Assembly: GCA_020631955.1 (NCBI GenBank)
Contig: JACKGL010000002.1
Coordinates: 141,860-205,859, forward strand
Direction of reading: 5' to 3'
Origin: Candidatus Nomurabacteria bacterium
GTDB taxonomy: Bacteria; Patescibacteriota; Minisyncoccia; Phycocordibacterales; UBA9973
Length of the DNA: 64,000 nt
Shown here: positions 2,175-36,160 of the stretch, piece by piece
Numbering within the stretch: position 1 is the stretch's first letter
Layout of the letters: each line of letters opens with the position of its first letter
The notes under the pieces: generated by a model
What the model was told of the DNA's origin: nothing
The model's database searches: none
The model's input: the letters and a program-made list of their open reading frames with translations, nothing else
Translations under genes and position numbers: made by a program

Positions 2175-3878
2175 TTATTCATCTAAGTCTACTTTTTCAG
2201 AAACTTCTTCTAAAGTAGTGATACCTTTTACTACTTTTATTATTCCATCTTCTTTCATACGTAGTATTCCTTGGGTGTTTGAAGCAGATAATATCTCTCT
2301 TTCTGAAGGGTTGGTAGGTATGATGTCTTCTATTTCTTTTGTATTTACTTTTATAGCTTCAAATATACCTATTCTTCCTTTGTATCCACTACCATTACAT
2401 TTTTTACAACCAGAACCTTTTTTCACCCCATAAGTATCTTTTATTTCTATATCATATGTATTTATATCTACACCCCTATCTTTTATTTCTTGCAATACTT
2501 TGTTTATTGTCCTTGTTTCTTCTTCTGTAGTATTAGAGCTTACACTGCAGTCAGCACAGACTTTTCTTACAAGTCTTTGTGCTAAAGCAAGAGTAAGGGC
2601 AGAAGGGATGGTTTTAGGATTTACTTCTAGATCTATAAGACGAGGGATAGCACCAGCGGCATTGTTGGTGTGCAGTGTAGAGAAAACAAGGTGTCCGGTT
2701 AAAGCTGCTTCTGTAGCAGTGTTGGCTGTTTCACTGTCTCTTATTTCTCCGACCATTATTACGTCTGGGTCTTGTCTTAAAGCAGAACGCAAACCTTCTA
2801 AGAAAGTATAACCTTGCTTAGAGTTGGTTTGAGTTTGGGTGATACCTTGTAGGTGGTATTCTATAGGGTCTTCTATCGTGATGATTTTTATCTCCGGGTC
2901 ATATATCTTAGACAAGAATGCATACAAGGTGGTTGTCTTTCCGCTACCTGTTGGCCCGGTGATGATGATCATACCGTTTGGTTTCTTTATTTCCTTTATT
3001 ATTATTTCGTATAGGTTTTTAGGAATACCTAAGTCCTCCAAAGATACTCTTATAGACTTTGGATCCAAAATACGCATAACAATAGTATCTCCATAAGCTC
3101 CTGGGATAATAGATGTTCTTATAGATATCTCTGTTCCTGTGTCGTCTAAAAATATACTAAACCTTCCATCTTGAGCCACCTGTCTTAACATGAGCTTAAG
3201 TCCTGAAAGAAGTTTTATTCTTGTATCTATGGAGTGGAATATGTTTGTAGGGAATCTATATATTTCCTCTAGGTTTCCATCTATTCTATATCTCATACGC
3301 ACATCTTCCTCGGCTGGTTCTATGTGAATATCGCTGGCCTCAAGCTCTATAGCGCCGGCTAATATTATTTCTAATATTTTTGATGTCTTGTGCTGCTTCT
3401 CATTTTTGAGCTCTTCTATCAAAGTTTTTACATCTTCTATACTTTCTATTTTTTCTCGAAGGTCTTTTATGGTTTCTGGGAGGATATCTATACCTCCAGA
3501 CTTTTGAACCTCAGCACGAGATATGTCTTCAAATCTTTCCCAAGCTTTTTCTAAAGAAGCTTTAGACGCCATATAAAGTATAGGAGTGAAGCCTTGGTTT
3601 TGAAGATTGTCTACAAAAGCTTTCACCTCACTTGTCTCAGGGCTTCTTACTGCTATATGGATCTTTGTACCTAGTATATTGAAAGGAGCAATACTGTTTT
3701 TCCTGGCTTCATCTTCTGTTATATGTCTTAGAGCGCTTGTTTCTATAGTAGTAGAAGACAGGTCTATATAAGGTAAGTTGTATTTTGACTGTGCTAAAAA
3801 CTGCACAAGCTCTTCTTCCTCGCGAGCTTTTAGATCGTCTACTTTTCTTTTTTGTTTTTCGTCATCGAAAACAACCAT
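2175..3878 (-). CDS. pilB: Type IV pilus assembly ATPase PilB (GspE family)
   Basis: 567 aa with Walker A GPTGSGKTTTL, VGEIRD, and the C-terminal tetracysteine CADC...CKKCNGSGYKGR. Confidence 0.85.
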   Translation of the reverse strand: MVVFDDEKQKRKVDDLKAREEEELVQFLAQSKYNLPYIDLSSTTIETSALRHITEDEARKNSIAPFNILGTKIHIAVRSPETSEVKAFVDNLQNQGFTPILYMASKASLEKAWERFEDISRAEVQKSGGIDILPETIKDLREKIESIEDVKTLIEELKNEKQHKTSKILEIILAGAIELEASDIHIEPAEEDVRMRYRIDGNLEEIYRFPTNIFHSIDTRIKLLSGLKLMLRQVAQDGRFSIFLDDTGTEISIRTSIIPGAYGDTIVMRILDPKSIRVSLEDLGIPKNLYEIIIKEIKKPNGMIIITGPTGSGKTTTLYAFLSKIYDPEIKIITIEDPIEYHLQGITQTQTNSKQGYTFLEGLRSALRQDPDVIMVGEIRDSETANTATEAALTGHLVFSTLHTNNAAGAIPRLIDLEVNPKTIPSALTLALAQRLVRKVCADCSVSSNTTEEETRTINKVLQEIKDRGVDINTYDIEIKDTYGVKKGSGCKKCNGSGYKGRIGIFEAIKVNTKEIEDIIPTNPSEREILSASNTQGILRMKEDGIIKVVKGITTLEEVSEKVDLDE

Positions 3879-4077: not shown

Positions 4078-4685
4078 ATGTTTATTTTCTTTGAAAGTTT
4101 AAGATGCACTACGTGTCTATGGGTAGAAGTATATAAAGGTGTACAAGTATATAAAGTGAGTTCATTTTCTATAGTAGGGGATTCTATCTCTACTTGGGTC
4201 GGCAAGACCACTTCTGTGTCGTATGTTTCATATACATAAAGTACTCCTTCCCAATACACAAAAGCTCTATCTCCCAATTCCATTTTTGGTAAGTGATAAA
4301 AAGTGCTAGACCGCTGCCCGCCTATAGATCTGTATCTGTGTGCTACTAGTACAGTGTTGCTACCTTTGTCCGGTGTACTAGTAAAAGGTCTTCTCCAGAC
4401 ATTGTCTCCGACACCTTTTATACTAGTACCTTCTACTATTTTTTGGCTGACTCCTATACTTGGTATGATAAGTTGGTTTTCTTGTGATTTTTCTATTGCG
4501 TTTAATACAAACTCAGGTATCTCTCCGCTACTATTTTTGTTTTCTAGTGCCAATATTACATTTGGGAAGAAGGGAAAGAAGATAAGATATAAAGACCAAA
4601 CCACAGCTAAAAATGTAGCTATTTTATTTATCTTTATAAGACTCTTAGCTCTCTTTTGTAGTTTGGCTACTTCATAATCTGACAT
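4074..4685 (-). CDS. Sortase family transpeptidase
   Basis: N-terminal TM helix, then VLVAHR (catalytic His), LTLYTCTP (TLxTC Cys motif) and a downstream RHVV Arg. Confidence 0.7.
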   Translation of the reverse strand: MSDYEVAKLQKRAKSLIKINKIATFLAVVWSLYLIFFPFFPNVILALENKNSSGEIPEFVLNAIEKSQENQLIIPSIGVSQKIVEGTSIKGVGDNVWRRPFTSTPDKGSNTVLVAHRYRSIGGQRSSTFYHLPKMELGDRAFVYWEGVLYVYETYDTEVVLPTQVEIESPTIENELTLYTCTPLYTSTHRHVVHLKLSKKINI

Positions 4686-4726
4686 AGATATATTTTATCA
4701 GAAATAAAGGATATTTTGTGCAAAAT

Positions 4727-4754
4727 AAAACACACCACATATGTGGTGTGTTTT
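4727..4754. terminator. Bidirectional hairpin terminator
   Basis: Perfect 20-nt palindrome CACACCACATATGTGGTGTG flanked by AAAA and TTTT. Confidence 0.6.
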
Positions 4755-4764
4755 ATTAAACTTT

Positions 4765-5997
4765 TTAGAAGTTTATAGTTTTTAGACTTAATTTCTTTCT
4801 TCTTGATTGAATGTAAAATACTGCTGCTATAGATATGATTCCTAGAGCTATCACTATAGTACTTTCTCCACTTGTTTGAGCTAGTGTAGCATCTGGGCCG
4901 ATAAATGATCCTAGAACAACCCCACCTTCATTATTACTATCATTGTTGTCATCGTCATCATCATTGTTGTTGTGGCTTCCACCACCTCCGTTGTTGTCTA
5001 GGTTTTCGTCTCCTAGATCTACCGGGCCTCCAATATCAACATTATCTATTACCTCATCACATTGTTTTGGTTGAGATCCATATCTTACAAAGAAAGTGTC
5101 GTCGTTGTGTCCTATAGTAAGCCAGTATTTTACAATACCACCACTTAGGTTCACTTCATCATTACCAGCTTCTAGTAGAGATATACCATCTGTCATCTTT
5201 TCTACTTTATTGTCACCAGATTCGTCGTTGGTGACAGCTTCTGCTGTAGTACCAAAGTATTCTATACTACCATCTACGTGTTCAAACCCTTCTCCTGGAA
5301 GTAGTCCGTATGAAGGAAGCATAATTCTAGATTGACCAGAAGACATTCTTTCTACCACCAGACCTTTCCACGGTTTGTATACGCTTTCTGTATATGGATC
5401 ATCTACCCAGTTTGCCCCATCATATATAAGGAACCATGTTCCAGAAGGGATAGGTAGAGGGTTGTTTGCTAAGAACACATCAGCTGTTACATTACCTGGC
5501 GCTATGTTAAGTGCGCTATCTATGTTTACTCTAGCAAAAGCTAGATCTGTACAAGAGTTGGCGTTTTGACATTGGTTCGTACAGTTTGAAGTACTATCAC
5601 ACATTTCCCAAGGTTGGTTTATGATACCGTCTCCGCAATAAGGAGCGTATGAGTGTGATGTACCAGCGTCTGTCCATCCATAGTCTGGAGTATCTATATC
5701 TTCCTCATCTAGTGGAGGATGCCAATCATCTTCTACACCATCTCCAGTGATAGTAGTATCTGTATCTATAGGAGGGAAGTAATCATCTTCTACACCTCCA
5801 CTTATATCCATAACATCTACTTCATCTGTAACAGTGAAATCTACGTCATGTATAACACCTACTTCATCACCTCCTCCAAATGTAAATCCACCAGAAAAAA
5901 GCTTCATTTTAGCCTCAGCAGAGAACACAGGTACAACAACCAAAACAGCAAAAAAGGCAATAAAAGCAATATTCTTTTGTATTTTTAATATTTTCAT
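4765..5997 (-). CDS. Secreted surface protein with C-terminal sortase-type sorting signal
   Basis: Signal peptide MKILKIQKNIAFIAFFAVLVVVPVFSAEA, an Asp/Asn-rich spacer, then LAQTSG plus a hydrophobic helix and RRKK at the C-terminus. Confidence 0.6.
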   Translation of the reverse strand: MKILKIQKNIAFIAFFAVLVVVPVFSAEAKMKLFSGGFTFGGGDEVGVIHDVDFTVTDEVDVMDISGGVEDDYFPPIDTDTTITGDGVEDDWHPPLDEEDIDTPDYGWTDAGTSHSYAPYCGDGIINQPWEMCDSTSNCTNQCQNANSCTDLAFARVNIDSALNIAPGNVTADVFLANNPLPIPSGTWFLIYDGANWVDDPYTESVYKPWKGLVVERMSSGQSRIMLPSYGLLPGEGFEHVDGSIEYFGTTAEAVTNDESGDNKVEKMTDGISLLEAGNDEVNLSGGIVKYWLTIGHNDDTFFVRYGSQPKQCDEVIDNVDIGGPVDLGDENLDNNGGGGSHNNNDDDDDNNDSNNEGGVVLGSFIGPDATLAQTSGESTIVIALGIISIAAVFYIQSRRKKLSLKTINF

Positions 5998-6200: not shown

Positions 6201-7868
6201 ATGAAAAATATCTTTATATTAATCCTTGCGGTTCTCGGGATGAGTACCGCAATCGCAAATGTTGCCAACAACGGCATGAAAAATCGCGCCAACTCTGGTG
6301 CGGATTATTACATGCCTATGGATCAGATCGTAAGCGATATTAGTGCTATGGATCAAACAAGAATCAACTGGTCCATTAAAGGCACCCTTCAACTCATTGC
6401 TGATGACATGACCCGTGAAACTGGGCAGAATTACTCTGCTCAGGATGTTTACGACATGATCGTAAATGGCGAGTATGAAATCATGACCATCCGCCAGTTC
6501 GAGCAGAGGTACGGCGTAAAAGTAAAGAACTTCTCCTATCACAAGGAGACACGGGAGTTTGTGGAGGATACAGATCCTTCACACCAAGATCCTGAGCAAA
6601 GGATCTTGGTATTCAAGCCAGTCGGTACATTACTCGTTTATGCAGCCTTCAAAGAAGGTTGTGCAAATCTCCAGAAGGGGATAGGCTGGAGAAAGGATGA
6701 AGATGAAGAGGTTACGACCTCTGAGTCCGAGTATGCAGTAAACGAAGGGAATGCAACCGCAACCGCTTCTGCCAACGCATCTGCAGACGTCAACGTGAAC
6801 GTAAACGTTCACGAAGACGAGGAGTACTCCGTTTATGACGGAGGAAATTCCGGTGGTGGATACTATGACCAAAGTTGCGGTTGTTATCAACCACAACCTC
6901 AAATGCAGTTCTCTGCGTTTGTGGGTTTCAACACTGGATATGGTTATTTTCCACCTTCACCACAGATTATTTATGTAAATGATGGAAGTGACGGGGATGT
7001 TTATGTTAATAACGACAACGACATAGATATTACCATTAGTGGTGATGACGATGAAGATCCTCCTGTTGTAGACGATGGAGGCCCACACGATGGTGGCGAC
7101 CCTGGTACAGGAGGACCTCACGAAGGGGGTGATCCACCTATCGAGGGATATGCGGATGGCGGTGATGGACGTTTGGCAGCTGAAAACTCATGGGAAAAGG
7201 AGGTGAATAACCTCCAGGCCCAGGAGAAGACAGCTGGTAAGAAGAACACTCAAACTGTTCAGAATGTTCCGGAAACGGACAACCTGAGTGGCAAGAATAA
7301 AACTTCTTATTCAAAACCATCAACACAGACAACCAATACCACTTCACACAACAACCAAGGTGCCCAAAGCATCAAAGTTGTGAAGAAGTGGACACCATCT
7401 AACCAAACAGCCAGTGCTGGAAAAAACCAAACCGTTGCTCAAAACAACGGGCAGGTTAAAGCCAATGCTGGGCAGGTTAAAACCAACACCAACACTGTGA
7501 CTGAAAACTCCACTAGAAATAATACTGGTTATGCTAACCAGGACTACTGGTGGAACAAAGGTCAGTACGCTTCCAATGCGTCCAGCGATGGCCGTAACGG
7601 AGGCAACAACTCTGGTTACAGCAACAGCAATGGTAATAGCCGAAACGGTGGCAACACCAACAACGGCTATGGCCAAAGCCAAAGCGGTAGGAATTATTCC
7701 TACTCCGGTCAAAACACCGGAGACCGCAACCAGTATACTACTGGTAACAACCGTCCCACCTACAACGGTGGAAAACCATACTCCGGTTCGGGGAGTATGG
7801 GAAGACCTGTGGGGGCTGTAAAAGGCCCTATGGGGAATACCTCGCGGACAAATTTCCGCGGACGGTAA
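6201..7868 (+). CDS. Secreted protein: about 170-aa N-terminal domain plus long N/Q/G/S/T-rich low-complexity tail (G+C-rich foreign gene)
   Basis: Signal peptide MKNIFILILAVLGMSTAIA. A hand-counted sample at 7381..7440 is 47% G+C, against about 30% in neighbouring genes. Confidence 0.6.
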   Translation: MKNIFILILAVLGMSTAIANVANNGMKNRANSGADYYMPMDQIVSDISAMDQTRINWSIKGTLQLIADDMTRETGQNYSAQDVYDMIVNGEYEIMTIRQFEQRYGVKVKNFSYHKETREFVEDTDPSHQDPEQRILVFKPVGTLLVYAAFKEGCANLQKGIGWRKDEDEEVTTSESEYAVNEGNATATASANASADVNVNVNVHEDEEYSVYDGGNSGGGYYDQSCGCYQPQPQMQFSAFVGFNTGYGYFPPSPQIIYVNDGSDGDVYVNNDNDIDITISGDDDEDPPVVDDGGPHDGGDPGTGGPHEGGDPPIEGYADGGDGRLAAENSWEKEVNNLQAQEKTAGKKNTQTVQNVPETDNLSGKNKTSYSKPSTQTTNTTSHNNQGAQSIKVVKKWTPSNQTASAGKNQTVAQNNGQVKANAGQVKTNTNTVTENSTRNNTGYANQDYWWNKGQYASNASSDGRNGGNNSGYSNSNGNSRNGGNTNNGYGQSQSGRNYSYSGQNTGDRNQYTTGNNRPTYNGGKPYSGSGSMGRPVGAVKGPMGNTSRTNFRGR

Positions 7869-23031: not shown

Positions 23032-23148
23032 AAATAGAGATTATCATATTTGTACTTTTACTACAATTTTGCTAATATGCTCGTACCAGTATTTCTGGTG
23101 AAAAGAATAAAGTATTTGCTAAAAGATACTTTGAAAAATTAAATAAAT

Positions 23149-23235
23149 GGAGGCGTGGCTGAGTGGTTGAAGGCACTTGTCTTGAAAACAAGAGACTGGG
23201 CAACTGGTCCGTGAGTTCGAATCTCACCGCCTCCG
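23149..23235 (+). tRNA. tRNA-Ser (anticodon UGA)
   Basis: Class II tRNA, 87 nt: acceptor GGAGGCG/CGCCTCC, anticodon loop CTTGAAA, long variable arm, T arm GTGAG-TTCGAAT-CTCAC. Confidence 0.9.
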
Positions 23236-23246
23236 CACACGATGGA

Positions 23247-23278
23247 AATACCCAATGCGAAAGCGTTGGGTATTTTTA
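23247..23278 (+). terminator. Rho-independent terminator after tRNA-Ser
   Basis: ATACCCAA...TTGGGTAT followed by TTTTT. Confidence 0.6.
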
Positions 23279-23368
23279 TTGTGCAGAGGGTTGCCGCGAA
23301 TCCTATAAGTTTATGCCCACCTCTGTAAAAACAAAGAGCAAAGCGATTATGTTTTTAAGAGAAGGGTA

Positions 23369-23385
23369 AATCTCGCTCCCTCCGC
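23369..23385 (+). repeat. Degenerate copy of the tRNA-Ser 3' end
   Basis: AATCTCGCTCCCTCCGC versus tRNA AATCTCACCGCCTCCGC: 14 of 17 identical by hand alignment. Confidence 0.6.
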
Positions 23386-23396
23386 CAAGACAATTT

Positions 23397-23411
23397 AGTA
23401 TCGGACGACCC
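23397..23411 (+). repeat. AGTATCGGA(G)NGACCC motif, copy 1
   Basis: AGTATCGGACGACCC, preceded by CCGCCAAGACAATTT as in copy 3. Confidence 0.6.
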
Positions 23412-23471
23412 GAGTGTCTATATTTTGCAACACTTCTGGAGACCTCGATATTCGTAAAAAGTTCGAACCTG

Positions 23472-23486
23472 TGAGGGATTCGAACT
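23472..23486 (-). repeat. Inverted tRNA T-arm-like fragment
   Basis: The minus strand reads GTTCGAATCCCTCAC, close to the tRNA-Ser GTTCGAATCTCAC. No cloverleaf can be built around it. Confidence 0.4.
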
Positions 23487-23560
23487 TTCTGTATTTTTGG
23501 GTATAGGAGTGAGGGGTGACCCACGTGCTTCGAAGAGCTTACACCCCTCATTAAGAATAA

Positions 23561-23576
23561 AGTATCGGAGCGACCC
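23561..23576 (+). repeat. AGTATCGGAGNGACCC motif, copy 2
   Basis: AGTATCGGAGCGACCC. Confidence 0.6.
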
Positions 23577-23633
23577 AGATACTTTATAAAACAGAGACCA
23601 CCTGAAAAGGTGGTTTTTGCTATACTACTAAAC

Positions 23634-24506
23634 ATGAACACGGAAACACTAAAAGATTTTATAGAAACTCATTGGGGTTTTGAAGAGGTTGTCTTGGAAC
23701 TCCTGCAAAATAAGGGCGATAGGTTCGTGTATAAAATCATTTCTAAAGAAGGTAATTTTGTTATTAAAATATCTGATACAGAAAAAACGGTAGAACAATT
23801 CAAGAAAGATTTGTATATGCTTGAATATGGGCCACGCATCGGATTTGACTATGTTCCAAAAATTATAGAGACAAAAGACGGGAGCTCGTATTTACATTTT
23901 CAAAATAGATTTCTTTTCATCATGGCTTTTCTTTCGGGGGAAAGCCCTGAAAACAACCCTCTGGATTGGCATAAAATTGGAGCGCTTACAGCCAGGCTCC
24001 ACAATATTAAAAATTATAAATACACTATCGATTTTAACCCATTGGATAAAAAAGGCGGAGTTGATGAGTTTTCTCAAGCCCTCTCATTTGGGAAGGAGTA
24101 TAGGGAGCTTTTTGCGACACTGCCAGATTTTTCAAACCTACCAAAAACTCCTATCCATACCGATATTGGTCTTCATAATTCTATAAAAAAAGAAAATGGG
24201 GAGATTATTTTCATTGACTGGGATGACGCTGGGATTGGGTTGCGTATTTTAGATATTGGCTTTCCGTTACTATCTCAGTTTGTTGATGAGAATAATATTA
24301 TACATACACAAAACGCCAAAGCCTTTTATTCAAGTTATTTTGAGAATGTACACATTCCTGTTTCTGAGAATGAAAAGAGGATGATATTTGATGCATCGTT
24401 ATTCTTTGCTCTCATTTATTTACGCTATAGTGATGTCGATAAAACATGGCAGCGAATTCAATGGGCTTTGTCTCATCGTGAAGAAATAGAATCAGTGCTG
24501 TTCTAG
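23634..24506 (+). CDS. Aminoglycoside/choline-kinase-type phosphotransferase (APH family)
   Basis: HTDIGLHN (HxDxxxxN catalytic loop) and FIDWDDAG (metal-binding Asp). Start at MNTETLKDF. Confidence 0.7.
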   Translation: MNTETLKDFIETHWGFEEVVLELLQNKGDRFVYKIISKEGNFVIKISDTEKTVEQFKKDLYMLEYGPRIGFDYVPKIIETKDGSSYLHFQNRFLFIMAFLSGESPENNPLDWHKIGALTARLHNIKNYKYTIDFNPLDKKGGVDEFSQALSFGKEYRELFATLPDFSNLPKTPIHTDIGLHNSIKKENGEIIFIDWDDAGIGLRILDIGFPLLSQFVDENNIIHTQNAKAFYSSYFENVHIPVSENEKRMIFDASLFFALIYLRYSDVDKTWQRIQWALSHREEIESVLF

Positions 24507-24601
24507 TACCCCGACCCATACCCCTCAATCCATATTTAAAATATACCACTAGAACGCCTTATGGTGTCTGTAGGTGTGGGTACTTAACCCACGCGGCCCG
24601 C
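24507..24601 (+). repeat. 95-nt cassette-end element, copy 1
   Basis: Runs from the stop codon to GGCCCGC. 57 of 95 positions match 25353..25447 in an ungapped hand alignment, with conserved blocks CCCCGACCCA, CTTAYGGTGTCT, GGTACTKAACCCA and GGCCCGC. Confidence 0.65.
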
Positions 24602-24612
24602 CAAGAAAACAA

Positions 24613-24628
24613 AGTATCGGAGTGACCC
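24613..24628 (+). repeat. AGTATCGGAGNGACCC motif, copy 3
   Basis: AGTATCGGAGTGACCC. A partial fourth copy, GGACGACCCGA, lies at 24646..24656. Confidence 0.6.
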
Positions 24629-24692
24629 GGAGGATTATGATTGTAGGACGACCCGATTAGTCAAGTTTGCATATTTAAGTTAAAATACTGAT

Positions 24693-25352
24693 ATGGAAAG
24701 TTTTCGTCAAAGCCCAATAACAACTGAAAATGAAACTGAAAAAAAGCCACTAAAAGAGAGTGTTGATTTTGTGTTTGAACAGCATACTGAATTAGCGTCT
24801 ATTGGTACCAAGGATCAGTACGTCCAATATATCGCGACTATTTTCCCAGATAGCAAATTCAAGGAAGTCGTATATCACAATTCAGATGCTGAATTTAAGA
24901 ATGAGGGGTTCAAACCAATGAAGCCTAATTTTGATACGCTTAACAGCATTGAGGGAGTCTATAATTTCAGCTCGAATCGTACCTTTGCTCAGCGATATGG
25001 CATTAATACTTATGCTGTCGTCTTGGACATCCATAATGCTATTGAAGATACTTCTTCGGGGGAATATGTTGACGACATAGACAGACCTTTATCTGAAGCA
25101 TTATTTAAAATAGGGAAACAAACCAAAGCGAATCCCTTCGCACCAGAATACGATGAAAATCTGAAAAATACCGATGCGGTGATTAATCATATTTCAGGAG
25201 AAGATTACATAGAAAAACATCCAAGAACTGGAAGGGAGTGGGGTGTTCCTCCTCAAACAGTAGTCAGCGTATTCCACGAGAATCAGATACACATTCTTGG
25301 TTCATCATCTGATGTGCAAAAGTTTCGTGAATTTGTTGAAAGAGAAAAATAG
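24693..25352 (+). CDS. Cassette-borne hypothetical protein (219 aa)
   Basis: Long ORF with no signal peptide. The C-terminal ...NQIHILGSSSDVQKFREFV reminds me of domains in polyvalent phage/plasmid proteins; this is an unverified impression. Confidence 0.5.
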   Translation: MESFRQSPITTENETEKKPLKESVDFVFEQHTELASIGTKDQYVQYIATIFPDSKFKEVVYHNSDAEFKNEGFKPMKPNFDTLNSIEGVYNFSSNRTFAQRYGINTYAVVLDIHNAIEDTSSGEYVDDIDRPLSEALFKIGKQTKANPFAPEYDENLKNTDAVINHISGEDYIEKHPRTGREWGVPPQTVVSVFHENQIHILGSSSDVQKFREFVEREK

Positions 25353-25447
25353 ATCCCCGACCCACACACCTTATTTTAACTCCTAAAAGTCTCCTGAAAT
25401 ACCCTTACGGTGTCTTACCTCCCTGGTACTGAACCCATATGGCCCGC
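25353..25447 (+). repeat. 95-nt cassette-end element, copy 2 (array terminus)
   Basis: Exactly the same stop-codon-to-GGCCCGC length as copy 1. It is followed by ATAAAAATCCC instead of CAAGAAAAC. Confidence 0.65.
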
Positions 25448-25449
25448 AT

Positions 25450-25472
25450 AAAAATCCCGAAAGGGATTTTTA
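25450..25472 (+). terminator. Rho-independent terminator
   Basis: AAAATCCC-GAAA-GGGATTTTT. Confidence 0.65.
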
Positions 25473-25529
25473 TAATTGTATTGTTATAAACCAGCACTTT
25501 GTTTTTATTTTTCATGCTAGAATATAAGT

Positions 25530-26578: not shown

Positions 26579-27667
26579 ATGAAGGACAGAGAAAATGTAT
26601 CAAAAATATTTCCTACACCAAGCTTCCTGGGGGGCAACTCTTTAGGGGTGGATATATCTGACAAATCTGTAAAATACGCATCGCTTTCTCCAGAAAATGG
26701 TGAATTAATACTCAACTACCACGGTAGAGAAGACATACCTGACGGGATAGTAGAAAGAGGTGAGATACAAGATCCTGAAAAACTTAAAGAGATATTTCGT
26801 AAAATAAAAAAGAAAGTAAAGAACGAATACATAAGAGCCGCTCTTCCTGAAGAAAAACTTTATCTATTCAACTTAAGTCTCCCAAAAATGCAAAACGAAG
26901 AGGTGAGAGATGCTATAGCTTTGTCACTGGAACAATACGTACCTATAACAAACGTAGATGTTATTTTTGACTTTGATTTTATAGAAGAGAAAAATGGTGA
27001 AATGCATTTCCAAGTAGGTGTGATACCAAAAGATATTATAGATAGCTATTTATCTTTGTTTGAGGGTACTGGTTTTACGCCTATTTCATTTGAGATAGAA
27101 GCGCAATCTATAGCCAGAGCTGTTATACCGAAAACAGAGACAGGAGCTGTAATGGTGGTGGATATGGGAGAGACTCGTACTGGTATATCTATAGCTTATA
27201 AAGGTTTTGTTTTGTTTACATCTACTGTAGAGATAGGAAGTGTACATTTGGATCAAGCTATAATGAAACATTTCAATATAGATGAAAAAGAAGCAAAACG
27301 AAGAAAAGAAAAATACGGCATAAGACAAGGTATGTCTGAAGAAAGTAATCTATTATCTGCTGTGGTAGACACTCTGACAGCTCTTCGTGATGAAGTAAAC
27401 AAGCACTATATATTTTGGGGCAGTCACCCTTTTGATAATGGATCCGAAAGACCAAAGATAGAAAAAATGATTATGTGTGGTGGAGGGTCAAATCTTTCCG
27501 GGGTCACTGACTTTATGTCTGAATCATTAAAAATGATAGTAGAAAAAGCCAACCCGTGGGTGAATGTTAATTCCATGAAAAGATACATACCAGATATGCA
27601 AAGAGATGATTCTATGGCTTATACTACTAGTTTTGGATTAGCATTAGCTGATTACGACCATGATTAA
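26579..27667 (+). CDS. pilM: Type IV pilus assembly protein PilM (actin-like ATPase fold)
   Basis: 362 aa; GVDISDKSVKYASL ... VVDMGETRTGISI ... MCGGGSNLSG. Confidence 0.75.
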   Translation: MKDRENVSKIFPTPSFLGGNSLGVDISDKSVKYASLSPENGELILNYHGREDIPDGIVERGEIQDPEKLKEIFRKIKKKVKNEYIRAALPEEKLYLFNLSLPKMQNEEVRDAIALSLEQYVPITNVDVIFDFDFIEEKNGEMHFQVGVIPKDIIDSYLSLFEGTGFTPISFEIEAQSIARAVIPKTETGAVMVVDMGETRTGISIAYKGFVLFTSTVEIGSVHLDQAIMKHFNIDEKEAKRRKEKYGIRQGMSEESNLLSAVVDTLTALRDEVNKHYIFWGSHPFDNGSERPKIEKMIMCGGGSNLSGVTDFMSESLKMIVEKANPWVNVNSMKRYIPDMQRDDSMAYTTSFGLALADYDHD

Positions 27668-32407: not shown

Positions 32408-33973
32408 ATGGAAAATAATGGTTTCAATAAGATTATAAACAACATTAACGAACAAAAAGGAAATTTTGGTGAGCCCCTTATTGAAAAACTTGGTCTAAAA
32501 ACTGGCAAGGAAGTCTCTCTGGTTAAACGTTCTCTTTCCGAAAATTCTGCCATTGGTGTTGGACAAAAAATTGAGGGCAAACTTATCCGTGATGTTCATG
32601 TTGGGCTACCTATTGAATTAGAAAATTCAAACACAAGTCCAATCAAAGAAATAAAAGAGGAACAAGGAAAATATTTTGTAAAAACACTTACTTCTGTGTA
32701 TGAACTTTTTGTACAAGCACAAAAAGTGGGAAATTTTGAGAAAATTTCCCACTTACAAGATGAACTAAAACAAATTGAATCTCATTTAAGTGAACAACCT
32801 GAATCAATCCAAAAAATGTTTCAAGAAATGAAAGACAAATTTTATTCTTCGGTTGAAATAGATAATAAAAAATTTATGTTCACCCAATTAAATGGAAATG
32901 ATGTAATGTCTTGGGTTGAAGATAAAAAAAATCCAGGCAAATGGAAAACTCGTCTTTTCAGGTTTTCTAGTTCAGATCACCAATGGAAATCACTGCCCGG
33001 AGAACGCGATGACGGAAGTTATATGAAAGGTGATGAGGATAGTCCTTTGCATCATTATGTGCAAAGTGCGAAATTAGATAAGAGAATTTATAAATTGATA
33101 AATTCTTTGCCTCAAAAATATAATCATTATTCAGCACAAGAATATTTACCCACTCCCCCGTATGGAGATACCAAAGGTCATTTTTGGAATGAATTTGAAT
33201 TTAAGGAAAATTACCAAACATTAAAAAATAAAGAATGGGCTTCCTACCAAGACTTTTGCCAGAGGTTTTTTAAGGGTTATGAAAGATTTGTGATGGGTGC
33301 TGATGGTTTCAGAAATTTTACTTTAGACGGTGGTCTGTATAAATGGATGAAAAATCTTGAAAGCATTGCAGAGTTTAGAAATATAAAAACTGAACTAGAA
33401 AGATTAAACACTAATCCAGAATATGCTGAGGAGTTGAAGCAAAGCAGTCTTTGGCGAATGGAAAAATTTATCAATGATAAACCGGAAGTTAAACACTTTG
33501 CTGAAGTATACAAACAAAATATTGGTTCTTACGTTGAAAAATGTTTTAAAGCAAGATTTCCTGAAACAATGATGCCTGATTTCAAAAAATGTGTTGATAA
33601 ATACGATAAGGTTGATATTGCTGAACAAGCACAAAAAAATAATATTCATATTGAGGAATACAAGGTAAATAATCCTGAAGGAGACGAATTAGTCTTTGCT
33701 ATGGCATATGACGATAAAGGTCGAGTCTATATTGATAATATTTATGACCCAAGAGTAGAAATTAGTGATTATGGTATTCCAAGCGAAATAGTCCAAATGG
33801 GACATTTGGTTTACAAGCCAGAGGATTATAGACAACAAACATATGCAATTCCTGAAAAATATTTAAATGATAAAAATAGCCACAAGTATATTGACATAAG
33901 TGCATTGTGGGAAAATATCCCAGTGATTAAAAATTTCAAAGAAGAGTTAAGGGTGCGTGGTGTTTTGAAATAA
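32408..33973 (+). CDS. Orphan cargo protein (521 aa) enclosed by IR-A
   Basis: Uninterrupted ORF, AT-rich unlike the flanking repeats, with no signal peptide or recognised motif. Its stop lies 6 nt before the right IR-A copy. Confidence 0.6.
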   Translation: MENNGFNKIINNINEQKGNFGEPLIEKLGLKTGKEVSLVKRSLSENSAIGVGQKIEGKLIRDVHVGLPIELENSNTSPIKEIKEEQGKYFVKTLTSVYELFVQAQKVGNFEKISHLQDELKQIESHLSEQPESIQKMFQEMKDKFYSSVEIDNKKFMFTQLNGNDVMSWVEDKKNPGKWKTRLFRFSSSDHQWKSLPGERDDGSYMKGDEDSPLHHYVQSAKLDKRIYKLINSLPQKYNHYSAQEYLPTPPYGDTKGHFWNEFEFKENYQTLKNKEWASYQDFCQRFFKGYERFVMGADGFRNFTLDGGLYKWMKNLESIAEFRNIKTELERLNTNPEYAEELKQSSLWRMEKFINDKPEVKHFAEVYKQNIGSYVEKCFKARFPETMMPDFKKCVDKYDKVDIAEQAQKNNIHIEEYKVNNPEGDELVFAMAYDDKGRVYIDNIYDPRVEISDYGIPSEIVQMGHLVYKPEDYRQQTYAIPEKYLNDKNSHKYIDISALWENIPVIKNFKEELRVRGVLK

Positions 33974-34437: not shown

Positions 34438-34530
34438 TGTTGTAACCAATTATTAGTTAGTCAGCAGAAAGGGCTATTCCAGATATCTTGACTAACGTTG
34501 AGGTTACAACACTGGAGTGGCCCTTTCTGC
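34438..34530 (+). promoter_or_regulatory. Structured recombinase leader with interleaved perfect complementarities
   Basis: Pairings: A 34438..34447 with 34502..34511 (10 bp); B 34456..34463 with 34489..34496 (8 bp); C 34464..34474 with 34520..34530 (11 bp); D 34478..34482 with 34512..34516 (5 bp). It ends 15 nt before the ATG. Confidence 0.5.
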
Positions 34531-34545
34531 TTGAAGAAAAAATAT

Positions 34546-36111
34546 ATGCAAAAATTCTTTTTGTATGCTCGCAAGAGCACCGATGTCGAGGATAAACAAG
34601 TGTTGAGTATCAAAGCTCAATTAACAGAGTTGCGCGCTTTCGCCAAAAATGAAAAGTTGGAAATTGTTAATGAGTTTGTAGAAAAGCGTACCGCTAAAGT
34701 TCCAGGTCGCCCCATTTTTGGCGAAATGATGAGACGAATTGAGAAAGGTGAAGTAAGCGGAATATTATCATGGCACCCCGATCGTCTGGCGCGCAATTCT
34801 GTGGACGGCGGACAGATAATCTACTTTCTCGACATCGGAAACCTTGCGAGCCTCAAATTCCCTAGCCACTGGTTTGAAAACACGCCACAGGGCAAATTCT
34901 CGCTGTCCATGGCATTTGTCCAAAGCAAATACTATGTAGATTCTCTTTCCGAGAACACGAAACGCGGACTTCGCCAAAAAGTGAGAATGGGTATATTTCC
35001 AAGCCAAGCGCCAGTGGGATATTTGAATGATAGCCGAACAAAAACGATTGTAGTTGAAAAGAAAAAATCTCGCATTGTGCGTTTGGCTTTCGAGCGATAT
35101 GTAAAAGGCAATCAAAGGTTAGAAGATATTGCAGAATTTTTGGCGAAGTCCGGTATTACAACCCGAACCGGAAAGAGAATCTCCAAAACCAAAGCGTCTT
35201 TTATCCTATCAAATCCGTTTTATATCGGCTTATTCAAATACAGTGGTGAACTCCACGAGGGGAAGCACGAGCCAATCATTTCAAAGAAACTTTTTGATGA
35301 AGCACAGGAAATGCTAAAACTTCGTGGTCAACCCGAAAGAAAACCACAAAATGAACCTCAACCATTTTGCGGTCTCATTTCCTGTGCTTCTTGTGGAATG
35401 ATGATAACTGGCGAACACAAATTCAAACGGCAGAAGAATGGGAATGTCCACGAGTACACATATTATCGCTGTACGAAAAAACGAAAAGATTTTATCTGCA
35501 AAGAATCTGCCGTTAGAGAGGAAGAAATGAATCGCCAGTTATCATCCCTCATTCAAAAAGTTTCTTTGCCTAAAGACTGGGCGGAGGAATTATTGAAAAT
35601 GGCGGAAAATGAACACAAAAACTCCGCCCAGTCTTTAACTGCTTGTGTGAAAGAGAAAGAAACGAAAATATCTGAAATTTCACAAAAGCTAGAGCGACTT
35701 CTTAACGGATATTTAGACCAAATTGTTGACGAGCAAGATTATCGAAATCAAAAAGCAAAATTATTGTCCGAGAAGAAGTCGCTTCAAGAAGAAATTTCAG
35801 ATTTTTCACACAAGCAGAATGATTGGCTCGAACCGATGAAAGAATGGATAAAAGACGCACAATCCTTGGACAAAATTGCTTCTGATGATGACCTTTTTGC
35901 AAAAAAGGTCAAAGCCAAAGAAATCTTTGGCTCGAACCTGCTTCTTGGCGAAAAAACAGTGCGCCGCGCCGCAGGCGCGGCTCCAAATGCGTTTGGAAAA
36001 TCAGGGGAAACAGCGTGGGCGGCACTTTGTGCCGCCCACTCCTTGGTTGGTTCTCAACCGCTAAGTTCAATACTGGTGCGCAGGAGAGGACTTGAACCTC
36101 CACACCCGTAA
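34546..36111 (+). CDS. Large serine recombinase
   Basis: Resolvase-type N-terminus YARKSTDVEDKQVLSIKAQ (catalytic Ser) and HPDRLARN, a recombinase domain, the zinc ribbon CGLISCASCG...YYRC, and a coiled coil. The last approximately 60 codons lie in IR-B and the tRNA. Confidence 0.85.
   Translation: MQKFFLYARKSTDVEDKQVLSIKAQLTELRAFAKNEKLEIVNEFVEKRTAKVPGRPIFGEMMRRIEKGEVSGILSWHPDRLARNSVDGGQIIYFLDIGNLASLKFPSHWFENTPQGKFSLSMAFVQSKYYVDSLSENTKRGLRQKVRMGIFPSQAPVGYLNDSRTKTIVVEKKKSRIVRLAFERYVKGNQRLEDIAEFLAKSGITTRTGKRISKTKASFILSNPFYIGLFKYSGELHEGKHEPIISKKLFDEAQEMLKLRGQPERKPQNEPQPFCGLISCASCGMMITGEHKFKRQKNGNVHEYTYYRCTKKRKDFICKESAVREEEMNRQLSSLIQKVSLPKDWAEELLKMAENEHKNSAQSLTACVKEKETKISEISQKLERLLNGYLDQIVDEQDYRNQKAKLLSEKKSLQEEISDFSHKQNDWLEPMKEWIKDAQSLDKIASDDDLFAKKVKAKEIFGSNLLLGEKTVRRAAGAAPNAFGKSGETAWAALCAAHSLVGSQPLSSILVRRRGLEPPHP
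35932..36078 (+). repeat. IR-B, right copy (147 bp)
   Basis: About 57% G+C by hand count (84 of 147). It contains perfect hairpins GCCGCGCC-GCA-GGCGCGGC and GTGGGCGGCAC-TTT-GTGCCGCCCAC. Confidence 0.95.
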
Positions 36112-36160
36112 GGGCACATCCACCTCAAGGATGCTTGTCTACCAGTTTCAACACCTGCGC
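36074..36160 (-). tRNA. tRNA-Leu (anticodon GAG), class II
   Basis: 87 nt including CCA. It aligns arm for arm with E. coli-type tRNA-Leu: acceptor GCGCAGG/CCTGCGC, anticodon loop TTGAGGT, long variable arm, T arm GGAGG-TTCAAGT-CCTCT. The last 5 nt lie inside IR-B. Confidence 0.9.

Follow-up and report, generated by a model that had tools for sequence, protein, structure and literature searches.

In the 64-kb stretch of DNA analysed here (hereafter the window), a compact group of genes at positions 23236-25447 directly follows a tRNA-Ser(TGA) gene (23149..23236, + strand; detected by ARAGORN and by the Rfam model RF00005 at 60.9 bits). Its neighbours are RuvX, the tRNA-Ser and a gene for a 153-aa membrane protein, and type IV pilus genes lie immediately 3' of the array (PilM at 26579). 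An earlier note, made from the sequence alone, had read the region as cassettes of one gene each, bearing conserved ends and inserted one after another at a single anchoring tRNA. That reading is supported, and the coordinates and counts given for the array all held.

The tRNA 3' end reads CCTCCGC|ACAC, and its last bases (..CCTCCGC) would constitute the left recombination junction, the crossover position within CCGC(CA) being inferred. It is followed by a 132-nt spacer (23237..23368, +) containing a terminator-like hairpin, the inverted-repeat arms of which lie at 23238-23258 and 23263-23283. This spacer opens the transferred block described below, is 100% identical in three other loci (L204, L206 and L207) and is likely the scar of an earlier insertion. 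Next comes a displaced, degenerate copy of the tRNA-Ser 3' end (AATCTCGCTCCCTCCGC plus CA; 23369..23387, +), which forms a junction with the leader behind it; as claimed earlier, AATCTCGCTCCCTCCGC at 23369-23385 agrees with 23220-23236 at 14 of 17 positions. The same succession of tRNA, spacer, partial 3' copy and leader was found in L087, L111 and L099.

The first unit does start with CAAGACAATTTAGTATCGGACGACCC at 23386, but its description as a single unit held only in part, as it is a composite of a gene-less leader remnant and a kinase cassette beginning at about 23551. The remnant, unit 0 (23386..23550, +), comprises the leader CAAGACAATTTAGTATCGGACGACCCGAGTG, a T-arm-like palindromic fragment (23461-23489) and a hairpin (23510-23550), and contains neither an ORF nor an end resembling the conserved tail described below. 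Its GTTCGAA..GGGATTCGAACTTT piece is shared with a leader that follows the conserved tail in L116. The inverted T-arm-like fragment at 23472-23486 was considered as a tRNA relic and rejected, since it belongs to this recurrent palindromic piece and no tRNA is detectable. The leader of the kinase cassette (23551..23633, +) carries AAGAATAAAGTATCGGAGCGACCCAGA, a hairpin (23597-23614) and TATACT just 5' of the ATG; it forms a direct repeat with 24608-24631 and has a near-identical copy in L099, 3' of the tRNA-Ser 3' copy. Its cargo is an APH-family kinase of 290 aa counted from the ATG (23634..24506, +; PF01636, E = 2.7e-11), and the exact protein is present in three host backgrounds. The tail that follows (24507..24603, +; nhmmer E = 1.4e-17) consists of Box A (GACCC-ATAC-CCCTCA), a middle block CCTTATGGTGTCT, a T-arm/acceptor mimic GTGGGTACTTAACCCACGCGGCCCG and CCA.

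The second unit starts, as claimed, with CAAGAAAACAAAGTATCGGAGTGACCC at 24602. Its leader (24602..24692, +) contains CAAGAAAACAAAGTATCGGAGTGACCC, a second box GGACGACCCGATTAG and a promoter-like TAGTCA-17-TAAAAT ending 6 nt 5' of the ATG, and a homologous leader occurs immediately 3' of tRNA-Ser in L015. The 219-aa cargo protein (24693..25352, +), previously labelled an orphan, is not one: it has 52 homologues and belongs to an ART-PolyVal-like (ADP-ribosyltransferase) family, 16 of 29 sampled homologues matching PF18760 and 2 matching PARP, while the window's own protein has no Pfam match. A second tail (25353..25447, +; nhmmer E = 8.3e-23) ends the array. Directly behind it, in the flank, is an intrinsic terminator (25448..25473, +), and similar terminators lie 3' of terminal tails in L040, L082, L044 and L085.

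Several further statements of the earlier note were confirmed. Both ORFs have a TAG stop codon placed exactly 95 nt ahead of GGCCCGC; the resulting 95-mers agree without gaps at 57 of 95 positions, where about 25 would be expected at the given base composition; and the junctions read CCGC|CAAGA twice and CCGC|ATAAAAATCCC at the array end, followed by the terminator at 25448-25473. The statement that one motif recurs 3-4 times failed, the exact 16-mer occurring twice with looser copies at 23398 and 24643. AGTATCGGAGNGACCC was found twice against 0.03 occurrences expected, and CCCCGACCCA, GGTACTKAACCCA and a whole-element HMM gave no further matches elsewhere in the 64 kb. On balance, we favour a reading of the region as a two-cassette array together with one decayed cassette and one older scar.

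The 95-nt tail proved to be one copy of an element of about 100-110 nt, which we call E. A scan of species-representative genomes with the exact 3' motif GGTACTNAACCCNNNNGGCCCGC showed this to be a family: it returned 98 genome loci, about 84 of them Patescibacteria-like and conserved over the whole ~100 nt, and never more than two loci per genome. The copies total 107, are co-oriented within every locus, form arrays of up to five and are 60-90% identical over ~100 nt across classes. Both copies in the 64-kb window belong to the array, and elsewhere E always occurs in a cassette context, which excludes a genome-wide intergenic repeat (REP/MITE-like) and answers the objection, foreseen in the earlier note, that the conserved ends are ordinary promoters or terminators. 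Chance similarity or simple tandem duplication was likewise rejected on the family-wide conservation and because the two local copies are 60% identical to one another as against up to 100% to copies in other genomes. A phage or plasmid origin was rejected as well: blastn found no match in phage and plasmid collections, and only one IMG/VR contig carries E.

More than 100 units share the same compact anatomy of leader, one cargo ORF and ~95-nt tail. The leader (~30-90 nt) follows the pattern A(G/A)AAnnnnAGTATCGG-nn-GACCC-nnnn and, by inference, likely carries a promoter as well. E begins at the cargo stop codon, the distance from stop to end being mostly 92-101 nt. Its final ~25 nt mimic the T-arm and acceptor end of tRNA-Ser in exact register (5-bp T-stem, 7-nt loop, 7-nt acceptor strand, G73 and often CCA, with which 46% of copies end). 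Leader and tail together make up one conserved element, which is uninterrupted in L073, directly 3' of tRNA-Ser. The boxes of E are direct rather than inverted repeats, and a direct-repeat co-variation of Box A and Box B was observed that is unexplained. The conserved secondary structure that the earlier note proposed to look for in the 95-mer is absent: RNAalifold on 81 copies yielded only a 3-bp invariant hairpin without covariation, mean folding z-scores against shuffled sequences were -0.26 and -0.52 on the two strands, showing no excess folding, and two hairpins noticed by eye (P1 and P2) are lineage-specific and out of register. E was thus rejected as a structured RNA or an attC-like folded DNA, in keeping with the claim that attC sites are missing. 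Nor is it a known RNA family or tRNA pseudogene, as no Rfam (at gathering thresholds and at E <= 10) or ARAGORN match was obtained over 24507-24601 and 25353-25447.

The cargo is highly diverse. The 65 cargo proteins encoded across the E loci fall into 53 unrelated families, in each case with E on the 3' side, and match 67 Pfam families; they include an APH-family kinase, a class-A beta-lactamase-like protein and ADP-ribosyltransferase-like proteins. Each unit has a single cargo ORF and the Pfam list includes no recombinase, which supports the claim that no integrase is borne by the cassettes.

Of the 49 loci that extend 1.5 kb or more upstream, 22 have a same-strand tRNA-Ser on that side. tRNA-Ser makes up 37 of the 65 tRNAs in E loci and 26 of the 32 same-strand tRNAs located no more than 3 kb upstream, with all tRNA-Ser anticodons in use (TGA, CGA, GGA, GCT and 'ACT'); about half of the arrays have no adjacent tRNA-Ser within the 8-kb blocks examined. 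The tRNA end and the E end precede a common leader, AAGAAnnnAGTATCGG..GACCC, which follows 18 of 36 tRNA-Ser ends and 20 of 96 E ends with a spacing from CCGC to GTATCGG of typically 12 nt. Cassette boundaries read CCGC|(C)A. In L011 the tRNA 3' end is present three times, and hybrid E/tRNA ends and partial tRNA copies exist (L011, L069).

Comparisons between hosts show that the cassettes are horizontally mobile, and with exact boundaries. Three hosts that share only 30-54% identity in RuvX carry the 1.37-kb segment 23232-24601 in 100% identical form. Identity begins at 23232, the tRNA bodies of the other hosts differing at 21-22 positions, and stops exactly at GGCCCGC|, where three different downstream neighbours follow; position 24601, where homology with L204, L206 and L207 ends, is the right boundary of the mobile block. 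We conclude that 23237-24601 is the most recently mobile block. Similarly, a cassette encoding a 270-aa protein lies behind tRNA-Ser(GGA) in L060 and tRNA-Ser(CGA) in L080, with homology spanning only CTCCGCCA to GGCCCGC, and each tRNA retains its own self-complementary T-stem and acceptor. The ART cassettes of the window and of L015 show the same bounded homology, which again stops at GGCCCGC. The unit boundary CCGC| proposed in the earlier note is therefore exactly where homology stops. The two cargo genes are not syntenic core genes, the other objection raised there, because ART homologues follow tRNA-Ser genes for different isoacceptors, in contexts that are unrelated, and the APH block, identical in three very different hosts, has differing downstream neighbours. 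All data are metagenome assemblies, in which an identical repeat of 1.4 kb can mis-join flanks; despite this risk, three distinct left and three distinct right flanks adjoin the identical block. No circular cassette or strictly orthologous empty site was observed, and a search for further orthologous loci through RuvX homologues returned only short contigs or non-CPR matches.

The earlier statement that there is no integrase held in part, as a large serine recombinase (LSR) is encoded at 34498-36111, outside 23236-25447. Relatives with at least 73% identity were retrieved (80 loci fetched, the LSR ORF located in 75); these abut tRNA-Leu, Val, Tyr, Ile, Arg and others and, in the 75 loci, never tRNA-Ser or E, so that the window's LSR is not a specific candidate for the cassette recombinase. 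Candidate recombinases do exist beside such junctions in other loci. LSR genes or fragments were found in 10 of the 84 genome-scan loci, and several adjoin equivalent junctions: an LSR element starts right after the tRNA-Ser CCA in L099 and L118 and directly after the CCA of E in L057, and an LSR lies one gene past the end of E in L204 and L050. The element in L099 terminates in 18 nt copied from the tRNA end, behind which a cassette leader begins. The ends of these elements resemble the leader (AAATTGAAAATCGG) and the E end, and the LSR subfamilies of L099, L057 and L050, which are 35-44% identical, occur at tRNA-Ser/E junctions. The best recombinase candidates are accordingly LSRs that target tRNA 3' ends, although the evidence is circumstantial and their action on these sites has not been shown. 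LSRs normally recombine only attP with attB, and an array of look-alike junctions would be a better fit to a promiscuous enzyme of the integron or Xer type. Across the 84 loci, phmmer with XerD revealed a single Xer-like ORF, which lies 5 kb away from E; viral contigs searched with the L099 LSR yielded distant matches only, and no E sequence was detected inside LSR elements.

The explanation we prefer, with more confidence than doubt, is a Patescibacteria/CPR-wide cassette family moved by site-specific recombination. Conservative recombination in or beside the core CCGC(CA) that the sites share, at a crossover position that is inferred, would insert and exchange cassettes. The chromosomal partner would be either the tRNA-Ser 3' end with the sequence after it or an E 3' end with its leader, and the incoming partner the joint between E 3' end and leader of a presumably circular cassette, an intermediate that is likewise inferred. 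The tRNA would stay intact and new cassettes would stack behind it. The recombinase, the identity of which is inferred, would act in trans; the LSR family is the best candidate because its own elements occupy exactly such junctions in several loci. The conservation of E over ~100 nt is more than a minimal core site requires and weighs against this explanation, as do the unexplained co-variation of Box A and Box B and the lack, at about half of the arrays, of an adjacent tRNA-Ser in the 8-kb blocks.

Among the rivals, homologous recombination is unlikely but comes closest. E, the leader and the tRNA-Ser end would be conserved for other reasons (as promoter or 3'-UTR) and serve as portable homology arms, through which RecA would swap in DNA from other CPR cells. 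The 60-90% identity of E copies across classes, the extension of homology between L209 and the window 27 nt beyond E into the conserved leader, and the type IV pilus genes immediately downstream (PilM at 26579) speak for it, and CPR bacteria are thought to rely on DNA uptake. Against it stand the sharp breakpoints at the same CCGC| in independent comparisons, the mere 60% identity of two E copies in one array, and a left arm of the APH block that, because the tRNA bodies differ at 21-22 positions, offers only ~5 nt of identity, too short for RecA. Very unlikely is the view that E functions mainly as RNA and equips each mRNA with a tRNA-like tail or 'punctuation' signal that serves RNase P/Z processing, the addition of CCA or stability, with arrays transcribed as accessory operons from the tRNA-Ser promoter and mobility secondary. 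It would accommodate the start of E at every cargo stop codon, the T-arm geometry, discriminator G and (in 46% of copies) CCA at its end, and the co-orientation of all copies with the tRNA. However, the 5' acceptor strand is absent, the RNAalifold signal is limited to the 3-bp invariant hairpin, z-scores are near zero on both strands, there is no Rfam or ARAGORN match, and identical cassettes behind different tRNA-Ser genes are left unexplained.

We give as little credence to single-strand transposition of the HUH (IS200/IS605-like) kind, in which non-autonomous elements insert 3' of CCGC or CCGCCA and end in the same tetranucleotide. Insertion is indeed always 3' of CCGC(CA), with a right end CCGC, no target duplication and strict orientation, and hairpins lie ~17 nt from the junction in some leaders and ~9 nt from the end in some E copies, a spacing that resembles IS608 geometry; but the commonest E subtype has only weak hairpins or none, folding energy shows no excess, and no TnpA-like gene was noticed near arrays, albeit without a systematic search. 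It is also most improbable that the cassettes are what decay has left of larger islands, tycheposon-like or prophage-like, that carried an integrase and integrated serially at tRNA-Ser, E being a conserved attP arm. Integration of larger LSR elements at these junctions is indeed seen (L099, L118, L057), and partial tRNA copies and hybrid E/tRNA ends occur (L011, L069), but decay does not account for more than 100 units sharing one compact leader-ORF-E form with the stop codon abutting E, for identical single-gene units in different hosts, or for the lack of detectable E inside LSR elements.

Site-specific recombination of a cassette family thus remains our preferred reading. A bolder version, which we consider possible but would not yet back, is that E cassettes form a gene-capture platform of their own, found only in Patescibacteria and independent of integrons, in which a dedicated trans-acting recombinase reads the mimic of the tRNA-Ser 3' end. 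The enzyme might be a specialised subfamily of tRNA-end-targeting LSRs or one not yet recognised, the landing pad the 3' terminus of every tRNA-Ser isoacceptor, and the traffic promoter-equipped single genes (kinases, ADP-ribosyltransferases, beta-lactamases, methyltransferases) shuttled between CPR lineages ~30% identical in RuvX.

The E-cassette family is widespread in Patescibacteria/CPR and apparently undescribed; no prior description was found in the literature searched, which left out most subscription journals. These bacteria have tiny genomes, an episymbiotic lifestyle and few recognised mobile elements. A cassette system that spans many classes of CPR bacteria would offer their accessory genes a concrete path from host to host, and could let organisms with minimal genomes trade genes much as integrons do. 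Its recombination site, which imitates a tRNA 3' end and is conserved in sequence, would be of a new kind that lends itself to sequence scans and recombination assays. Should a serine recombinase prove responsible, the system would amount to a natural multi-site LSR platform for stacking cassettes, of interest to biotechnology.

Several known systems were compared with this organisation. Non-autonomous elements of the IS200/IS605 type (PATE) have strong subterminal hairpins at both ends and depend on a Y1 TnpA in trans; in E arrays, hairpins are confined to some copies and folding energy shows no excess. Modules moved by Xer recombination at pdif sites (IMEX) are small, lack a recombinase and use short sites with a host-encoded enzyme; their sites are 28-bp dif-like XerC/XerD sites on plasmids, and no dif-like sequence was recognised by eye in E arrays. 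SCCmec-type arrays sit 3' of one conserved housekeeping gene, are split by short direct repeats and include many units without a recombinase, thought to be moved in trans by Ccr LSRs of neighbouring units. In contrast to E arrays, their target is rlmH rather than a tRNA, their units span many kilobases without a conserved ~100-nt element and they are confined to Firmicutes, while LSR involvement in E arrays is only circumstantial. In Dehalococcoides, genomic islands insert site-specifically at the 3' end of the tmRNA gene ssrA in a reduced genome, with serine recombinases mentioned (PMC3146451). Such islands sit in tandem separated by direct repeats; unlike E cassettes, they are multi-gene and integrase-bearing, and their repeats merely copy the ssrA end instead of forming a separate conserved element.

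Tycheposons and Islander-type islands use tRNA 3' ends, including tRNA-Ser(TGA), as hotspots (bioRxiv 10.1101/2020.12.28.424599). As in E arrays, successive insertions displace older ones outward and partial tRNA copies are scattered about. Tycheposons, however, carry their own integrase and usually replication genes and kilobases of cargo, whereas E units of ~0.5-1.9 kb have one ORF, no integrase and a dedicated conserved mimic element of ~100 nt at the end of each. The tycheposon crossover lies inside the tRNA, the 3' part of which is restored by the element, whereas a tRNA with E cassettes behind it retains its own 3' half; a tycheposon-type crossover would be compatible with the larger LSR element of L099, which has an 18-nt flanking repeat.

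Also close in organisation are integron cassettes, which, like E cassettes, are compact, mostly single-ORF units in co-oriented arrays, with extremely diverse cargo including resistance-like genes, no recombinase inside the cassette, their own 3' recombination element and boundaries at a fixed short core. Integrons nevertheless have IntI, attI and Pc and recombine attC with attI or attC, whereas the E array has no adjacent IntI-type gene and no attI. The attC site is an R''-L''...L'-R' palindrome conserved in structure, whereas E is conserved in sequence, without a palindrome or folding signal, and the integron core G|TTRRRY differs from CCGC(CA). Unlike integron cassettes, finally, E cassettes are anchored at the 3' end of tRNA-Ser, apparently bring their own promoter-like leader and reside in CPR bacteria.

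The tRNA-Ser(TGA) gene (23149-23236) ends in CCTCCGC followed by ACAC, and a degenerate copy of that end, identical at 14 of 17 positions, lies at 23369-23385, both as claimed in an earlier note which proposed that two tandem single-gene cassettes sit behind this tRNA. Its claims that both units open with CAAGA..AGTATCGGA..GACCC, that the TAG stop codons of both ORFs stand exactly 95 nt ahead of GGCCCGC, that the two 95-nt tails are equal at 57 of 95 positions without gaps, that a terminator follows the second unit and that the first unit carries an APH-family kinase (PF01636, 2.7e-11) held likewise. Two claims failed: the motif said to recur three to four times is present as an exact 16-mer twice, and the 219-aa ORF of the second unit, described as an orphan, has 52 homologues. 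The cassette-end motifs have no further occurrence elsewhere in the 64-kb window, which belongs to a Candidatus Nomurabacteria (CPR) genome (GCA_041402165.1). The most recently transferred block (23237-24601) opens with a 132-nt spacer that holds a terminator hairpin and continues with a displaced tRNA 3' copy (23369-23387) that includes the CCA absent from the live tRNA gene, a gene-less leader remnant (23386-23550) and the APH cassette proper, whose leader, the conserved stretch between the junction and the cargo ORF (23551-23633), closely matches that of the first cassette at L099 (L-numbers denote comparison loci from other genomes and metagenomes). The ART cassette, named for its ART-PolyVal-like 219-aa gene, occupies 24602-25447.

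Homologues of the 219-aa gene were found in unrelated neighbourhoods, each just 3' of a tRNA-Ser (anticodon GGA in L011 and L013, 'ACT' in L015), and two of these three loci share both the leader and the tail, the latter with the end GGTACT.AACCC....GGCCCGC. This 23-mer, with 18 specified bases, was used to scan one genome per species, for which about 17 chance matches are expected at equal base frequencies. It returned 98 loci, 14 of them coding or high-GC chance matches; the remaining 84 bear Patescibacteria labels of many classes or belong to low-GC MAGs with doubtful labels. The whole ~100 nt 5' of the pattern is conserved in these 84 loci although it formed no part of the query. The resulting element, E, has the consensus (stop)CCCGACCC-nnnn-RCCTCA ... 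AAAATACCCTTAY ... GGTACTKAACCC-nnnn-GGCCCGC(CA), and the two 95-nt tails in the window are copies 1 and 2. A profile search detected 107 copies in the 84 loci, co-oriented within every locus, with arrays of 2-5 copies spaced 0.5-1.9 kb apart and one same-strand ORF between successive copies. Variant copies ending in ..CTCCGCCA also exist. Near its start and end E carries two direct repeats, Box A and Box B, ~75 nt apart, whose variable 4-mers (alignment columns 23-26 and 102-105; 24517-24520 and 24592-24595 in copy 1, 25363-25366 and 25438-25441 in copy 2) agree beyond chance: 30 of 81 copies carry one and the same 4-mer in both boxes (z = 5.8 vs permutation), mainly as the pairs ACAT/ACAT and GAGT/GAGT. 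The cause of this co-variation is unexplained; E subfamilies or a shared binding specificity could account for it.

Comparison of cassettes between loci demonstrated that the units are mobile and that their boundaries fall exactly after CCGC. The ART cassette lies behind E copy 1 in the window and directly behind tRNA-Ser in L015, with homology running from just after CCGC to GGCCCGC and unrelated flanks. A second cassette, encoding a 270-aa protein, is ~90-95% identical between L060, where it follows tRNA-Ser(GGA), and L080, where it follows tRNA-Ser(CGA); its homology begins with CTCCGCCA and ends with GGCCCGC. Each of these two tRNAs keeps its own mutually complementary T-stem and acceptor, from which we infer that crossover occurs at the tRNA 3' terminus and not inside the gene. 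Three host backgrounds carry the exact APH protein, namely that of the window, that of L204/L206 and that of L207/L209; their RuvX proteins are 30-54% identical to each other. The APH block is present in samples JGI 3300010349, 3300009778 and 3300010350, ERZ27257486 and SRR14234112-120. Positions 23148-24601 are 98.6% identical to L204, L206 and L207; in L204 and L207, where their positions were checked, the 21-22 mismatches all fall within the tRNA gene, and 23232-24601 is 100% identical. Identity stops at 24601. Beyond that point the window has the ART cassette, L204 has a 226-aa gene and a large serine recombinase (LSR), and L209 has another leader and gene; the start of the L204 downstream sequence is also present in L206 and L207. 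All of these are metagenome assemblies, in which a 1.4-kb identical repeat may mis-join flanks; even so, the one APH block has three different sequences on its left and three on its right. L117/L118, probably a single genome and a closer relative of the window host (RuvX 70% and a 153-aa protein 80% identical), has a serine-recombinase element directly after tRNA-Ser(TGA) and a different sequence ending in ..CCGCCA, without E, ahead of the 153-aa gene. By these homology and flank comparisons, neither outcome that the earlier note would have taken as refutation was met: the ends are not ordinary terminator or promoter sequences shared genome-wide, and the two genes are not syntenic core genes in all relatives.

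The equivalence of the two kinds of junction is likewise shown. tRNA-Ser accounts for 37 of the 65 tRNA genes in the 84 loci and for 26 of the 32 same-strand tRNAs <=3 kb 5' of the first E, with every anticodon represented; 22 of the 49 loci with enough upstream sequence have a same-strand tRNA-Ser upstream. tRNA-Ser genes end in ..CTCCGC, often followed by CA, and E ends in ..GGCCCGC, after which CA stands in 46% and A in 47% of cases. One leader, A(G/A)AAnnnnAGTATCGG-nn(n)-GACCC-nnnn, occurs after both end types (18 of 36 tRNA-Ser ends, 20 of 96 E ends), with a CCGC-to-GTATCGG spacing of typically 12 nt. In L073 a tRNA-Ser is followed by an uninterrupted leader and tail with no gene between them; the left end and the 95-mer described in the earlier note are therefore halves of one element, and cargo is placed between two Box A copies (GACCC-nnnn-RCC). 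Moreover, the last ~25 nt of E (GTGGG-TACTTAA-CCCAC-GCGGCCC-G-C(CA)) align in exact register with the tRNA-Ser 3' end (GTGAG-TTCGAAT-CTCAC-CGCCTCC-G-C), sharing a 5-bp T-stem, a 7-nt loop, a 7-nt acceptor strand and the discriminator G. By eye, the leader motif AGTATCGG is nearly the reverse complement of GGTACT in E, and the two lie 13 nt on either side of GGCC/CGCC, so the E-leader joint looks like an imperfect dyad of ~46 bp centred on the shared CCGCCA, a possibility inferred from sequence.

In several CPR genomes (L015 5062-5149, L032, L039, L064, L066 and L106) ARAGORN reports a serine tRNA whose anticodon is ACT (loop TTACTAA), often beside a divergent tRNA-Ser(GCT); these genes also anchor cassettes. 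A serine tRNA with A34 is unusual in bacteria. In arrays without a tRNA, tandem direct repeats such as TTGGCATTTGTTGGCATTTGA, TGTCTCATTTGTCTCATTT, GTGTCTATCGTGTCTAC and also TTGGCATT precede the first E (L020 ~1605-1625, L024, L044 ~4210-4232, L115 ~3577-3600, L116 ~7410-7432); they resemble iteron- or operator-type protein-binding sites, a tentative likeness. L011 has three tRNA-Ser(GGA) 3'-end copies in a row (4442-4461, 4593-4612, 4713-4732), the second fused to E-like GGGTACTGAAC, and a 50-nt downstream-flank duplication (4746-4795 and 6771-6820) on either side of a two-gene insert ending in E. A hybrid at L069 (5530-5615) joins an E body to a tRNA-like ..CTCTCCGCCA end.

The cargo is diverse. 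By BLAST, the 65 distinct proteins encoded directly 5' of E copies form 53 families; their Pfam matches span 67 families, including methyltransferases, HNH nucleases, APH, Beta-lactamase2, NUDIX, isochorismatase, asparagine synthase, adenylosuccinate synthetase, pyrophosphatase, HAD and DUF4440. The 219-aa protein of the window has no Pfam match itself, and among 29 sampled homologues 16 match PF18760 (ART-PolyVal) and two PARP; weaker GNAT acetyltransferase matches also occur in the family. A class-A-type Beta-lactamase2 protein (L115 6646-7497, 5.3e-44) and the APH kinase (23634-24506) place resistance-like genes on mobile CPR cassettes, their substrates being untested. Cargo stop codons adjoin E, the stop-to-E-end distance being mostly 92-101 nt. 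Many leaders have a -10-like hexamer a few bases 5' of the ATG, from which we infer that cassettes bring their own promoter and yield leaderless mRNAs.

No recombinase gene was found within the cassettes. LSR genes or fragments (Resolvase, Recombinase and Zn_ribbon_recom domains) occur in 10 of the 84 E loci of 8 kb. In L099 a 3.7-kb LSR element begins right after tRNA-Ser..CCGCCA and ends in an 18-nt tRNA-end copy, after which come a cassette leader and three cassettes; L118 has an element of this type (C-terminus 85% identical) at the tRNA-Ser orthologous to that of the window. Another LSR element begins right after the CCA of an E (L057), and in L050/L055 and L204 one gene separates an E end from an LSR of a third subfamily. 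These elements have left ends (CCA followed by AAATTGAAAATCGG..) similar to the cassette leader and right ends similar to the E end. The L099 LSR is flanked by a ~40-nt inverted repeat. Partial tRNA-Ser 3' ends behind one and the same joint between GTGACC and GAATCC recur in different genomes (L040 and L082, in both ~190 nt after E; L099 5510-5541) and resemble right-end scars of L099-type elements behind E copies.

The LSR of the window itself (34498-36111) is a member of a very abundant subfamily: it has >560 relatives in metagenomes, of which the best 80 show 73-100% amino acid identity. In 52 of 75 loci the 3' ends of the gene and of a convergent tRNA overlap (Leu 31, Val 5, Tyr 5, Ile 5, Arg 3, plus Gly, Ala and Asp), and tRNA-Ser or E was found at none of the 75; this LSR is probably not the cassette enzyme. 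LSRs targeting tRNA ends are thus common in these CPR organisms, the window subfamily being a very successful example. In the window the 3' end of the LSR gene overlaps tRNA-Leu(GAG) (36074-36160, minus strand). A 147-nt inverted repeat (34209-34355/35932-36078, 100% complementary), whose right arm takes in the LSR 3' end and 5 nt of tRNA-Leu, brackets the gene, and one of 232 nt (32027-32258/33980-34211, 100% complementary) brackets a 521-aa ORF (32408-33973) without Pfam match; the repeats could mark a segment that inverts, or could have arisen through LSR activity.

We propose that a cassette would be circular, with its own E 3' end joined to its own leader, and would recombine at or beside CCGC(CA) with the tRNA-Ser 3' terminus or with the E-leader joint of a resident cassette, catalysed by an enzyme supplied in trans; the tRNA would remain unharmed and co-oriented cassettes would build up behind it. 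Three parts of this scheme are inferred: that the cassette is circular, where crossover takes place and which enzyme performs it. LSRs normally act strictly on attP x attB, which counts against an LSR as the enzyme, as does the lack of any LSR subfamily statistically tied to E.

Among rival readings, homologous exchange with E and the tRNA as arms is unlikely, and an RNA-level role for E, HUH-type single-strand transposition and decay of larger islands are less credible still. E has no Rfam or ARAGORN match and neither consensus secondary structure nor covariation, and on neither strand does it fold more stably than shuffled sequence (mean z = -0.26 and -0.52). Searches of the phage and plasmid collections gave no match to E, and by the 64-kb window search and the genome scan it is not a high-copy genomic repeat. 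Its strand is C-rich and G-poor; we infer that E most likely functions as double-stranded DNA recognised by proteins.

Site-specific addition of cassettes remains our preferred reading. No prior description of E was found in the full-text literature searched, the coverage of which was incomplete, so that an earlier report is not excluded. Like integrons, the E system consists of single-gene cassettes without a recombinase, each with a 3' recombination element and arranged in arrays, but every defining integron feature tested (IntI, attC structure, GTTRRRY core) fails. With tycheposons and other tRNA islands it has in common a hotspot at tRNA genes and the presence of partial tRNA copies, but it lacks their integrase, replication modules and intragenic crossover. 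Its closest counterparts in mechanism could be SCC-type composite arrays, which serine recombinases mobilise in trans, and the ssrA islands of Dehalococcoides (PMC3146451). E cassettes may be regarded as a kind of site-specific gene cassette, with a substantial chance that they represent a distinct platform in their own right.
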